Shown here: positions 15,514 through 55,872 of the stretch, piece by piece
How positions within the stretch are numbered: position 1 is the first letter of the stretch
How the letters are laid out: every line of letters begins with the position of its first letter
Source: Podarcis pityusensis
Taxonomy: Eukaryota
Length of the DNA stretch: 64,000 nt
Assembly (NCBI GenBank): GCA_964106645.2
Contig: OZ067040.1
Reading direction: 5' to 3' (one strand)
Made by a program: the position numbers and the translations under genes
Notes under the pieces: generated by a model
Told to the model about the DNA's origin: nothing
The model's database searches: none
Seen by the model: only the letters and a program-made list of their open reading frames with translations

Positions 15514-16064
15514 TGTCAGGAACCGGAGTCAGGAGCAGGTCAATAACAAAACATCTGTGAAGTTAACTCTTTATTCAAAGAAACCAAAACAGCTCAGGCC
15601 TTTGTGATCACAGCAATTCTTCCCAGTAGGTCTTGCCTCAATGAAGCAGTTGCAAGGACTGAACGTCCCTGCCTTTGTGCCGCGCTCTAAGACTCCTCCT
15701 TTGGTTCCCTCCCCAGCAACCTGAGGCTCTTTGTCTTCTCTCTCTTTGCTCTGCCCTCTTCATTCCTCTTCATGTTCTGGGAGACCAGGAGGGAGAAGAG
15801 CTGGTCACAGCAGGAGAGAGAGGGACTCCCTGGCCCTCACTCTGCATCTTGACCGCCCTCTGCTTCTGGACTGCTCTTCCTGCTCTCCAAACTCTGTTAC
15901 CTATTCAGCTTCTGACAACCTTCTCCCAGTCTGCTCCTTCTTCCTCTGACCACTCAACATCATCCCACCACCCTGGCTCTGAGCCTCCTTCTCATGGGGG
16001 TTCCCTAGTGGGTTCCCCAGCTGCTGCCTCCTACCACTTCTCTGCATTTAGCCAGTTCATAGCA
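15514..16064 (-). mobile_element. Solo-LTR-like element (551 bp) with degenerate ORF
   Basis: TSD TCTAT at 15509-15513 and 16065-16069; TG..CA; minus strand starts TGCT-ATG (MNWLNAEKW*EAAAGEP..WDDVEWSEEEGADWE..SPRT*RGMKRAEQRERR..RRSLRAR); AATAAA near the element 3' end. Confidence 0.82.
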
Positions 16065-16184
16065 TCTATCTGCTTCTGATTCCTTTTCTTAGCTAATCCA
16101 AATGGATTCCATGAAATAGGGGACCCAGAACATACCGTACAGTCCTGTTCAATGTCTTATTTTAAGAGGTATTACAGGTAAGGT

Positions 16185-16810
16185 TTAATTATTAATTTCT
16201 CTACTACCCTTCATCTGAGGATCACAGGGCAGTTTACAATTTAAAATACAAATTTTCACACCATAGTAACAAACGAAAACAATACCCAACCCCCCAGTTT
16301 AAAAGGCCTTAGATTGTTTAATTGTCCAAAGGCCTGGGAGAATAGGAATGTTTTTGCCTGGAGCCCAAAGATACGTAGCGAAGGCACCAGGCGAGCCTCC
16401 CTGGGGAGAGCATCACACAAATGGGAAGCCACTGCAGAAAAGGCCCATTCTCATGTTGCTGCTCTCAGGACCTCTCACAGAAGAGGCACACAAAGAAGGG
16501 CCTCACTTGATGATCTCAGGGTCCAGGTAACTTCATATGGAAAGAGGCGGTCCTTGAGGTACTGTGGTCCTGAGCTCTTGGGCCAGGATCAATCTAATAT
16601 GCTCAAACCATCTTCCCTCGGTGAGCAACCTGGCTGCTGAATTCTGCACCAGCTGAAGTTTCCGAACTGTCTTCAGAGGCAGCCCTATGTATAACACATT
16701 GCAGTAATCTAACCTTGAGGTTACCAGAACATAGATGACAGAAGTTAGGCTACCCCTGTCCATGTAGAGCACACCTGGGCCACCAGCTGAAGCTGATGGA
16801 AGCACTCCAT
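16185..16810 (-). mobile_element. L2-clade LINE 3' fragment
   Basis: LVTSRLDYCNVLYIGLPLKTVRKLQLVQNSAARLLT; 3' UTR shared with 3243-3600. Confidence 0.85.
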
Positions 16811-17635
16811 GCAATCTCCCCTCCTTCAATAAAAACAAACAAACACAAACAACAAACTCACACAAATTTAAAACAGTTAAAACAATTTAAATGCACAGTT
16901 TCATGTGTACACACGTGTGTGTGCATGTACCCTTGGCTTATTTGATTTCATAAAATTATTTTTTTCCCTTTAGATTTTTGCCTAATGTAATCTTTTAAGA
17001 AAAAGAGCAGAGCAGAACTGTCAATTTTACTGAGCTGGATTTGTTTGAGTAACATAACAGCTCCCGTGGGAATTTTAGCATAGGGTAGAGTACTTTACAA
17101 TTGTGTTTTGTGGCTCAAAAAGATTTCCTGCCTTGGTCTTGCTGCCGCTGCTGAGTTCCCCAAGGACAGGCTGCTAAAAGTATGCTACCTGCTCCTTCAA
17201 CTGCAGCAAAAGTTTCATCCAACTGTTTTATTCATTTGATCATATTTTACTTTTGATGCAGAGTCTGCTGCTCTCAGTTATGTTAGAATGGTTGTAATAG
17301 TGTTACAGCAACCACTTCATTGCAAATGTAGATTCTCATAATTTTACTCCCATGTTGATCCCCCCCCCCCCGAAGACTAGTTATAGGGAAAGCAGCACAT
17401 CGTATTTGGGCAGGCTTTGCTTAACTAGTTTCACTATATTAGTGTTAATGTTGAGAGTGGGACTGAAGATGGCTGTACCCAGATAGAGAGTCTGGTACCA
17501 TGCATATATTTTTTTAAAATTATTATTTTTTTAGGAAGCTGCCTTTGCATTTGCACTATCACCTAGTAAATATAACTCATGGATAAGTTTTATATCATGT
17601 TTGATGTTCTAAGATAGCTTTTCCAACATTCAGAG

Positions 17636-17772
17636 CAAGGTTTCCCAAGCTTGAGTCTCCAGCTGGTTTTTTGACTACAACTCTGACCAACCTTAGCTAT
17701 CAGGACCAGTAGTCAGGGATGATGGGAACTGAAGTCCAAAATCAGCTGGAGACCTAAGTTTGGGAAACCCTG
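17636..17772. mobile_element. Palindromic hAT-type MITE
   Basis: Same core (ACTACAACTC..GGGATGATGGGAACT) with variant TIRs. Confidence 0.8.
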
Positions 17773-17837
17773 GTTTAGATGGAGGCCAGAAAATGTACTA
17801 ATTCAATGCCACCTTTTAGCTCTGATGCCTCCTAGGA

Positions 17838-17973
17838 CAGGCTTCCTCAACCTCGGCCCTTCAGATGTTTTTGGCCTACAACTCCCATGATCCCTAGCTA
17901 GCAGGACCAGTGGTCAGGGATGATGGGAATTGTAGTCTCAAAACATTTGGAGGGCCGAAGTTGAGGAAGCCTG
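17838..17973. mobile_element. Palindromic hAT-type MITE
   Basis: TIR CAGGCTTCCTCAAC; 8-bp TSD TCCTAGGA/TCCTAGGG. Confidence 0.88.
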
Positions 17974-53189: not shown

Positions 53190-53811
53190 CATAGCTGTCA
53201 AGTGTCCCTTATTTGAAGGGACAGTCCCTTATTCCAGCTCCATGTCCCGCTGCTGTCCCTTATTGATGGATGTCCCTTAAATGTCCCTTAAATGATGTCC
53301 CTTAAATGATGTCCCTTAAATTTCAAAGGAAGCAGCTCCTCTCCCTCCCTCCCTGCCGGCCAGGGAGGTGGGATGCTCCAACTGTGTTGCTTGCCTGTGT
53401 TGCTCACCCAATAAGAAGTCTCAGAACGACTGGGGGATGGAGCTTGCATGCCTTGTGTGTGGCTAGTTAATGCAAGCTGAGGGGGGTTTTTGAATGCTGG
53501 ACGCCATTTTGTTGCACGTGCTGCTGCAAACTTTGCAGTGCAAAGCCATGCCAGGGAGCCATTTTAAATTGAGGCTGCATAGGCCTTGTAGTGCATGTGA
53601 TTCAGATTCTATTCAGTTGAACCTCTGGTTACAAAGTTGGTTGAACAGTGTTCTCAAAGCTACCCAGCATGAGTTTGACCAGACTGCAGGAGGACAGGAA
53701 GACTGGAGTGCCTGGAACAGGTGAGGCTGCAGGTCCCTTATTTTGGCTGCTGGTCCCTTATTTTCAAGGTTGCTGGTCCCTTATTTTCAAATCTGTAAGT
53801 TGATAGCTATG
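53190..53811. mobile_element. hAT-type non-autonomous element
   Basis: Perfect 8-bp TSD CTGTAGCC; TIR CATAGCTGTCAA / TTGATAGCTATG; reiterated GTCCCTTA subterminal motifs at both ends. Confidence 0.9.
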
Positions 53812-54806
53812 CTGTAGCCAGCTTGGCTGCCCTGTCAATGCCAATGTGAACTAAGAAACTCTGGGAACTGCAGTTCTTAAGTGACACTGTTTCATAGGAA
53901 GACATGCTGCTCTCTGTCCCTCAAACAAGAAGTCCTAAAGCACCCCTCTCCAATCTGGTGCTGGCCAGGTGTTGTTGGATAGCAACTTTGATCAGCTCCA
54001 GCTAGCATTGCTAATGGGCAAGGGTAATGGGAATTTGATTCCCAACATCTGGAGCACTCCAGGTTAGCAAAGGCTGTCCTAGAGCATCAACAAACAATTA
54101 TTGTTGCTCTGTGCAGAGTTCTAGAGGTGAGCTGTATTAGAAAACCCTGCGGAAGCCAGCTTTCAAAAATTAAAGACTGACAGTTGAAAACTTTCACTAG
54201 TTAAAATACTAAAAGCTAGCAATTTCTTTTAACTTGTTATCTAGTTAATTCCTGGTGCGGATCAGATGTGGCAGCCAGGAATCTATCTATGCTTGGAACA
54301 ATCCATCGTTGTAACATGACAGAGAGGTATAGGAGTTCCTACTTGAAAAAAAAACTTCCTTGAATTTGGGAAATGGCCATGATGGTTCCACTGACCTCTG
54401 AAAATGTTAACCGTGCTTGTAGAATGCAACATGTATTTGCTATATAACAATGGAAATTTCATAGTATTGGAAGAGAAAAGGACGGATCCATTTAAAGCAG
54501 AGGAAAGCAGGTGCATTGTAAATATATGTTCAGTGAGCTATCAGTCCGCAGATGTATACTTTTCTTGGAGGATAGATGTTTGGGTGGAAAATTAAGCACT
54601 CGGTACTCTGAACACCATTTTTTACTTTGTGAGACACATTTTGAAGCACAGTGAATAATATTTTAAGCAAGCTGCTTTTTCACAAATGGTAGCAGATATT
54701 GGACCAGAGGTGAATTATAAGTGTTAGCAGATTTCACTTTTATCTTATATTGTTCTGTCCTAGTGGCCTGAAAAGAACTCATATAAGTGCACATGCTGTT
54801 TTATAG

Positions 54807-54920
54807 ATTGGAACTTGGGATCCTGCAAGTGGACTTAACATGACCGAGAACCAGAAAGGAAAACCAGCAAACATTACTGATTCCTTATCTAATCGTTCCC
54901 TAACTGTAACCACCATCTTG
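54807..54920 (+). CDS. GRIK2: GRIK2 internal coding exon (ATD-LBD linker, start of S1)
   Basis: ttttatag|ATT...TTG|gtaagt; 114 nt, phase 0; [38 protein letters not shown]. Confidence 0.96.
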
Positions 54921-55223
54921 GTAAGTAATCATATGTGCAATTGTTTTCTAGAAATTCAGCTGAACGTTAAAACTGTGAAGAAAAGTCATATTACTTACAA
55001 AGCAATGACCAGTATGCAAATGTCTTTTACATTTATTTGGCAATTACTGTATAATGAATGATCTGAAATGTTAATTTAGTTATGGGATTTTTATGATAAT
55101 GGCAATTCATTTTAAGTGCTATGATCTCAGCTGACTAATCATTTAGCGTTCTTATGGTTCCTTAACATTTTAAAGTTTAGGCAAAAGCTACCATTGTCGG
55201 TTTGGAGAAAGTAATATATACAT

Positions 55224-55280
55224 TGTGTGTGTGTGTGTGTGTGTGAGAGAGAGAGAGAGAGAGAGAGAGAGAGAGAGAGA
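55224..55280. repeat. (TG)n(AG)n compound microsatellite
   Basis: Direct reading. Confidence 0.95.
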
Positions 55281-55439
55281 AAATGCATGGTTTAGATTGA
55301 ACTTAAAATCAATTCATCACCAGGATATTCTTTCCAAAAGCAATAGTGAGACTTTTCAGCATCATCCTACATAACCTGTATGATTAATTTCCCCCCCATA
55401 TGTGCTCTTTTCCATTGTGGGGAAAATGCCCATTACTCC

Positions 55440-55872
55440 TGTCAGGGAACTGACATCGGAGCCTGAGGTGGAGGGAAGGCTCTCAAATGATGCTAGAGAA
55501 GGGCCAAGCAGGGAGAGAGGCAGTTCAGCAGAGGGGGAAGCAAATCAACGTTACACCAGGGATAAAGGGGGGCAGATGGGGGAATCGGCGAGAGGGCTCC
55601 AGGACTCTTCACTGGACACCAGCGGGGAGAGCACGGGTCCTCCACTACCCATGCCCTCCCTGCGCAGAAGACTTCCACGCAGGGAGAGTAGGAGGAGACT
55701 GGGCGTCAAACAACTTTTATGTTGGAAGAGGTTTAAGAAACGCCCACTGACGGATTCTGCTAGCGACTGAGGCAGCCACGAATTGAAGGGCTGTGCAGAC
55801 AGAAAGGTTTAACAAGGCAACATAGCCAGGAGAGGCGGCAACTTACGCACGAGCAAGCCCATACTCATTATA
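55440..55872 (+). mobile_element. Solo-LTR-like element (433 bp) with a 109-codon open frame (55441-55770)
   Basis: TSD ACTCC at 55435-55439 and 55873-55877; begins TGTCAGG and ends ATTATA (CA>TA); VRELTSEPEVEG..STGPPLPMPSLRRRLPRRESRRR..KRFKKRP. Confidence 0.75.

Follow-up and report, generated by a model that had tools for sequence, protein, structure and literature searches.

Why should three solo long terminal repeats (LTRs) with little DNA similarity each carry what looks like a small gene at the same position? The question is raised by a 64,000-nucleotide stretch of the Podarcis pityusensis genome (NCBI GenBank assembly GCA_964106645.2, contig OZ067040.1), hereafter the window. A preliminary description of these LTRs, here called E1, E2 and E3, was made from the sequence alone and offered two answers: a Gypsy-like or endogenous retrovirus (ERV)-like lineage with an accessory LTR gene comparable to HIV nef or MMTV sag, or a C-terminal tail of pol that runs through the polypurine tract (PPT) into the 3' LTR. 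We find that the second answer is right for E2 and E3, in which in-frame junctions of full-length copies identify the apparent small gene as the Pol (integrase) tail and not as an accessory gene.

The LTR frame of E2 and E3 is the end of Pol

E2 (42380..42997, minus strand) belongs, as a solo LTR, to a very young chromovirus family and is flanked by the target-site duplication (TSD) GCAAG at 42375-42379 and 42998-43002, and its LTR frame (42643..42996, minus strand) comprises 117 codons plus a stop. E3 (55440..55872, plus strand; TSD ACTCC at 55435-55439 and 55873-55877) is a solo LTR of a second chromovirus family, and its LTR frame (55441..55770, plus strand) comprises 109 codons plus a stop, without an ATG at its start and with the first methionine at codon 46. 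Searching the genome with each element gave 1786 first-look candidates for E2, 3853 for E1 and 2613 for E3, 40 of which were scored for each. Full-length copies of E2 and E3 with paired LTRs were found, and in these copies pol is in frame with the LTR reading frame: Pol passes integrase, chromodomain and PPT and then continues through 109-130 codons of the 3' LTR. In three of the four full-length E2 copies read, a 1623-codon Gag-Pol frame ends 117 codons inside the 3' LTR, the LTR frame being its end. Pol runs in frame into the LTR at 27 of 28 E2-type loci chosen by their chromodomain alone (30 loci less two that are not of this element) and at 25 of 30 E3 junctions, three being duplicates of one insertion. 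The same was observed in diverged E3-lineage families, at 26 of the 29 loci that could be read, a set (30 fetched, two unreadable, one E3 copy added) in which selection by protein query favours in-frame copies. The E3 lineage has ~85-100 additional tail codons upstream of the PPT, its LTR frame being the second half of the integrase tail.

The full E2 element is 5.6 kb long and encodes capsid, protease, reverse transcriptase (RT), ribonuclease H, integrase, a Tf2-1 SH3 domain and a chromodomain in its single 1623-codon frame. Between paired E3 LTRs, gag and pol occupy different frames, pol encoding the integrase domains also seen in E2 and a weak chromodomain; the two integrases are 47% identical. 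Both elements show the order gag, protease, RT, ribonuclease H and integrase between paired LTRs, without env. The E2 chromodomain matches PF00385 at 1e-14 with the Y-W-Y cage residues intact; that of E3 (6e-5) falls below the cut-off and lacks the first cage residue. A wall lizard protein in UniRef shares 91% identity with the end of E2, and the match takes in the tail. No tRNA site follows the 5' LTR in either element; at six of the seven E2-type loci examined it is followed by a perfect 10-nt complement of a site in the element's own LTR, and at three of the six E3 loci examined by a perfect 11-nt complement of such a site, the LTR end or start being impossible to locate at the remaining loci. 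Priming by the RNA's own 5' end is described as a mark of the Tf1/sushi group (PMC6317226, PMC4600332). We conclude that both solo LTRs derive from Ty3/Gypsy chromoviruses whose primer sites are of the self-priming (Tf1/sushi) type; the Gypsy half of the first proposal stands for both elements, and the ERV half does not, given the lack of env and of a tRNA primer site.

E2 has identical copies, and its LTR pairs, 5.0 kb apart, showed zero mismatches in all four pairs read. In the window, E2 interrupts the RT of a young Ty1/Copia element (39156..44090, plus strand), whose 380-bp LTRs are 99.7% identical and whose frame is open for 951 codons up to E2. Because of these identical copies and LTR pairs and of this insertion, we regard E2 as very young.

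Several observations on the two families stand apart from these conclusions. E2 subfamilies vary in gag-pol layout (L162-L181), the youngest having the single 1623-codon frame and others a pol of ~1270 codons, and at L035:2348-3569 an E2 solo LTR has inserted, in the reverse orientation, into an LTR that is older and belongs to the same superfamily. LTRs of the young E3 family end in TA, not CA, in all copies read but one (window 55868-55872; L066-L095). Full-length E3-lineage elements are strongly clustered on a 38-Mb contig (C19 of genome G000; loci L069-L071, L078, L083-L087, L092-L093 and L308-L336), on which all six fetched E3 pairs lie and which is possibly a non-recombining sex chromosome. 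At L143, a long interspersed element (LINE) fragment interrupts an E3 3' LTR in frame, producing a 519-codon chimeric open frame.

Transcription would start past most of the frame

In both E2 and E3 the LTR self-primer site lies ~30 nt past a TATA-like word. In E2 the two features (42599..42638, minus strand; GATAAA at 42633-42638 and the self-primer site at 42599-42608) would mark the U3/R border, and in E3 the self-primer site lies at 55746..55756 (plus strand). Since self-priming uses the RNA 5' end, we infer that transcription starts at this site, which is LTR nt ~390 in E2 and ~307 in E3. The LTR frame would then lie upstream of the start as a whole in E2 and with the exception of its last 8 codons in E3, and because of that position neither a solo nor a 5' LTR would transcribe it from its own promoter. 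The TATA-like and AATAAA signals first placed after the frame were found in part, as GATAAA in E2 and as TATA-like words before the self-primer sites, but AATAAA is present only in E1.

RNA evidence came from four raw runs of a related or the same species, with 124-202 reads per run that are mostly 90-95% alike. Two bulk libraries contained low, mostly sense reads along the element interior, and in the four runs LTR reads fell on both strands and were several-fold deeper than internal reads. No splice joint into U3 was seen in these four runs, at a depth low enough to make this thin evidence. The final ~44 residues encoded by the E3 LTR frame form the end of one UniRef lizard gene model of a phospholipid-transporting ATPase (P0025), as the result of either solo-LTR exonisation or an annotation artefact.

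Selection on the LTR frame

To assess selection, variants were classed against the commonest letter of each alignment column. In the E3 LTR frame (28 copies), shared variants gave synonymous to nonsynonymous odds of 7.4 (p = 8e-6) with CpG masked and 3.3 (p = 4.5e-4) unmasked, and rare variants showed no synonymous preference (odds 0.85-0.93). The odds were below 1 in the shifted forward frames, and the signal recurs in the mirror antisense frame, which is also the case for integrase. Across six pairs of diverged E3-lineage copies, the ratio of nonsynonymous to synonymous rates (dN/dS) was 0.37 in the LTR frame (p = 3e-13), 0.21 in the internal tail and 0.13 in integrase. Of 60 E1-family copies, 55 were aligned, with a divergence of ~13% from the commonest letter of each column; shared variants in their LTR frame gave odds of 2.5 (p = 0.0014) and rare variants 0.97, with shifted forward frames below 1 and nothing after the stop, and the spacings that recur between anchors differ by 3, 9, 12 or 15 nt. 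Among 39 E2 copies of five subfamilies, one shared indel (30 nt) falls in the frame; past the stop there are 20, and the length of 12 of these is not divisible by three.

The LTR frame is under purifying selection in the E3 lineage and the E1 family and shows it only weakly in E2; the codon bias or dN/dS below 1 proposed as a check at the outset was observed for the former two, but the E2 signal is weak and not significant. As rare variants show no codon bias, the frame decays neutrally after insertion. This decay, together with the position upstream of the inferred start, runs counter to the suggestion that solo LTRs seed the genome with ready-made open reading frames.

E1 and the common register of the three frames

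E1 (15514..16064, minus strand) is a solo LTR of an old family with the TSD TCTAT at 15509-15513 and 16065-16069; for all three elements, positions and perfect 5-bp duplications were verified. Each frame begins at LTR nt 2 with the codon at nt 5 in register, as first described, but the ATG found there in E2 and most E1-family copies is lacking in E3. Frames of the ~110-120 residues initially reported are open in E2 and E3 only: the E1 coding frame (15638..16063, minus strand) is decayed in the window copy, with a frame shift and four early stops (codons 11, 24, 53 and 98), although variants shared by its family are codon-biased. The claimed common architecture applies to E2 and E3 insofar as acidic residues come first and basic ones last, and the three products have a charge pattern in common, but no pairwise likeness extends beyond local composition. 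RRSLRARHK, at first taken for the basic end of E1, is off-frame; E1 shifts frame in its basic part, and in other copies the upstream frame is the one that encodes the basic motif, for instance QRETRRRSLRLLGK in L064. The word GAGCTGTTTTGG, which in E1 lies at 15584-15595 beside AATAAA at 15570-15575 (together 15570..15595, minus strand), is indeed common to E1 and E2 and, within the window, present in these two only.

Shuffled controls gave a divided answer on frame length. Among dinucleotide shuffles, 38 of 2000 (E2) and 42 of 2000 (E3) produced an equally long frame starting at nt 2, so that the register-specific frame is rare (~2%), but in any of the six frames such a length was reached in 959 of 2000 and 451 of 2000, respectively (23-48%). 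As any-frame shuffles reach it so often, frame length alone is weak evidence.

The E1 frame is likely fused to pol as well, as its codon bias and the layout common to E2 and E3 would suggest. A protein search, itself weak, found longer fused E1 forms in 0 of 567 candidates, and E1 likeness to the E3 internal tail was not above that of shuffles. Another lizard-type chromovirus lineage (P0032 and P0052) has a long acidic, tryptophan-bearing tail after a degenerate chromodomain, and its WWD word, which recalls the E1 frame, makes it a candidate lead to the E1 parent.

Motifs in the integrase tail

The E2 tail ends in SPRRSARLKARR. Its RRSARL (codons at 42694..42711, minus strand) is an HMGN-type motif and a candidate anchor for the nucleosome acidic patch: it matches the HMGN consensus RRSARLSA, whose three arginines are reported to be required by Dot5 for binding the acidic patch (PMC13347269). 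Shuffling the E2 basic segment produced RRSARL in 0.06% of shuffles, and the core is present in E2 tails, with L changed to F in one subfamily. Complex prediction for the last 44 E2 residues with the H2A-H2B of this genome scored 0.45 versus 0.02 for the best control, which is weak support; runs agreed in at least 26% of contacts with a partner pLDDT of at least 39, and no interface was given. Scores at or below 0.60 came from only five of 78 solved complexes and from all four mismatches that passed. Neither the E2 tail nor the E1-family frame matched a Pfam family, an Atlas search returned only chromodomain-like leads (under 0.9), and a sequence search of the PDB gave nothing for the E2 tail and only chance matches for the E3 tail.

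In the E3 lineage, the tail contains two units before the PPT, each composed of hydrophobic residues, an acidic linker and FxGF, at 27 of 29 and 26 of 29 loci. The x positions take 4 and 8 different residues, and F, G and F are invariant across families with 71-100% integrase identity. These paired units fit the definition of the TND-interacting motif, namely hydrophobic helix residues, an acidic linker bearing Ser/Thr, and FxGF, the last being essential for LEDGF/HRP2 partners (PMC9987994). One such unit is also carried by P0042, a lizard protein with a different chromodomain. At the end of the frame, a basic-CW-basic motif (RRRLGVKQLLCWKRFKKR in E3; codons at 55690..55743, plus strand) is kept across diverged families: it is found in 16 of 17 long E3-lineage LTR frames and in the distant P0029, with CW between the basic clusters invariant in alignment A2. 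The spacing of the clusters resembles that of bipartite nuclear localisation signals (NLSs).

A chromodomain-plus-tail profile searched against 1.8 billion representatives matched the whole tail in P0021 and P0029 only, the partial matches being named wall-lizard proteins; vertebrate transposon proteins are sparse in this set, which limits the host range that can be deduced.

Possible functions of the tail and alternative explanations

We consider it probable that E2, E3 and likely E1 are chromovirus solo LTRs whose frame encodes a likely disordered integrase tail, serving, as we infer, nuclear entry and chromatin tethering through host-like motifs. The data establish the element class, the in-frame passage of Pol past the chromodomain and then the PPT into the 3' LTR, the selection on the frame and the conservation of the motifs. 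With transcription beginning at the self-primer site, the frame would be read only from the 3' LTR of the full-length RNA, as the Pol end, with the tail remaining attached to integrase after processing. The E2 lineage would combine an intact aromatic-cage chromodomain with an arginine anchor, RRSARL, that would engage the acidic patch of H2A-H2B. The E3 lineage would combine a chromodomain without its first cage residue with two pre-PPT FxGF motifs for a LEDGF/HRP2-type TND and with the LTR-encoded basic-CW-basic motif as an import or targeting signal. Solo LTRs would retain the frame as a by-product, and it would then decay. We put forward more tentatively, as somewhat short of an even chance, the idea that the LTR-overlapping tail is a swappable targeting module of host-mimic motifs: an HMGN-type anchor in one lineage and, in the other, a lost cage residue with twin FxGF units recruiting LEDGF/HRP2, so that the lentiviral tether would have been reached independently by linear-motif mimicry.

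Several results weigh against this interpretation of E1, E2 and E3 as carriers of a tethering tail. The transcription starts are deduced from the self-primer sites. The FxGF units lie upstream of the PPT, outside the LTR, and no TND ligand turned up when solved structures were searched by sequence. The three tails show no homology beyond composition, since between 40 and 411 of 500 local shuffles scored as high as the real pairs. For E1, no internal region was found in 62 loci or in six regions of 14.5-15.5 kb; tblastn of pol at 60 loci gave none, and a PPT-plus-LTR pattern gave two matches, neither with pol. In E2, dN/dS is 0.46-0.62 between the most distant of four subfamilies, which is not significant, and 0.6-1.44 between close ones, and shared-variant odds are 1.2 (p = 0.64) with CpG masked, rising to 1.7 (p = 0.06) without masking. 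Peptides fall outside the calibration of the complex prediction, and a basic peptide can score with histones through charge or memory. The integrase end of the Copia element in the window is also acidic, with Ser/Pro and RRSxR, so this motif may be common. With flank GC and CpG taken as a proxy for targeting, solo LTRs of E2 and of E3 showed no difference (35 versus 18 loci). Several close relatives in other hosts, such as P0003, end Pol soon after the chromodomain, so the group as a whole can do without the tail.

Some of these results would fit a Pol tail that is a tolerated acidic spacer plus a plain NLS, with HMGN-like and FxGF-like motifs that bind neither nucleosomes nor LEDGF. We regard this as rather unlikely, even though it would accommodate the weak constraint on E2, the bipartite spacing of the basic clusters, the weak H2A-H2B score and the likeness of E2 and E3 flanks. 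The two helix-acidic-FxGF units argue against it, being invariant at F, G and F with x variable at 71-100% integrase identity, as does the invariant CW between the basic clusters. Ty1 bears on both sides, since its integrase ends in a bipartite NLS, but within that NLS it is the linker that contacts a host factor and acts as targeting domain (PMC7459421).

Far less probable is an independent accessory gene of the nef or sag kind, expressed from spliced or read-through RNA with its ATG at nt 5 and supplied to the host by solo LTRs. The ATG of E2 and most E1-family copies, the deeper LTR reads on both strands and the ending of P0025 in the E3 frame would speak for such a gene, but nearly all junctions are fused to pol, E3-lineage LTRs lack an ATG at that place, the frame lies upstream of the inferred start, no joint into U3 appeared in the four shallow RNA runs, and the frame decays neutrally after insertion; we accordingly set this part of the preliminary description aside. 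Least probable, with only a slight chance, is that the open frame is a by-product of a GC/purine-rich U3 kept for promoter function, pol merely lacking a stop before the PPT. Any-frame shuffles often produce long frames, and the E2 frame region is more conserved as DNA than the rest of the LTR, with a synonymous rate (dS) below that of pol, both of which would fit. For the E3 lineage and E1, however, this explanation is already largely refuted, given the frame-specific synonymous bias in both, indels that are only in frame, and protein motifs kept amid diverged sequence.

Relation to known systems

A Pol frame that enters the 3' LTR is already known from plant chromoviruses; the new part is the tail motifs in lizard elements. 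In CRM group A the gag-pol frame extends into the 3' LTR, whose part encodes a putative targeting domain with the CR motif (PMC3059260), and in the Reina-clade elements Bingo1-4 and 7 of beet the frame extends into the LTR downstream of a chromodomain (PMC3605345). The lizard gag-pol frame likewise passes through the PPT into the 3' LTR. It differs from CRM group A in using a self-primer site instead of a tRNA-Met primer-binding site and in keeping a chromodomain rather than the CR motif, and from both plant groups in its vertebrate host, its 117-210 residue tail with other motifs and its copies across all large contigs. The lizard elements therefore work like CRM group A but are not members of it. 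They resemble the Tf1/sushi elements (V-clade: sushi-ichi, Amn-ichi) described in PMC6317226 and PMC4600332 in domain order, chromodomain, Tf2-1-like SH3, 5-bp TSD and self-complementary primer site, but differ in their long, selected, U3-overlapping tail, in a grouping made by these features. No vertebrate description of the tail or its motifs was found in the literature searched, which did not extend to Butler 2001 or Repbase, either of which may note the overlap; the words 'ORF' and 'reading frame' are absent from an LTR survey that includes the Sushi clade (PMC3601003).

The tail motifs have counterparts elsewhere. Tails of the E3 lineage end in basic-CW-basic as Ty1 integrase ends in its NLS, a likeness of layout, but Ty1 is a Copia element with the tail inside pol before RT and with AC40, which belongs to Pol III as a subunit, as partner. 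The RRSARL of the E2 tail resembles that of HMGN, Dsup and Dot5 (PMC13347269), but sits on a retrotransposon integrase tail with weak predicted binding only. The tandem FxGF units recall LEDGF/HRP2 TND partners, with the difference that they belong to a transposon protein and are a candidate motif from sequence alone. HIV nef and MMTV sag share with the lizard frame a coding sequence that overlaps PPT and U3, but the lizard frame is the Pol end. Both nef and sag are separate genes on spliced RNAs, and lentiviruses bind the LEDGF TND through the integrase core, not through a linear motif.

These results explain the small-gene look of the LTRs, extend to vertebrates the plant chromovirus layout in which LTR DNA codes for the integrase end, and warn annotators, since one lizard gene model already ends in the frame. 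If the motifs bind as predicted, they would name tethers that steer integration of vertebrate Ty3/Gypsy elements, the group behind PEG10 and RTL1, and would place LEDGF/HRP2 use outside lentiviruses, which is testable with peptides.

Other repeats in the window

The window also contains dispersed ~240-bp repeats resembling short interspersed elements (4264-4511, 36456-36691, 47133-47356, 48573-48821, 58957-59210 and 61136-61371) and dispersed ~145-bp palindromic repeats resembling miniature inverted-repeat transposable elements (9929-10070, 17831-17980, 35633-35779 and 51701-51849).

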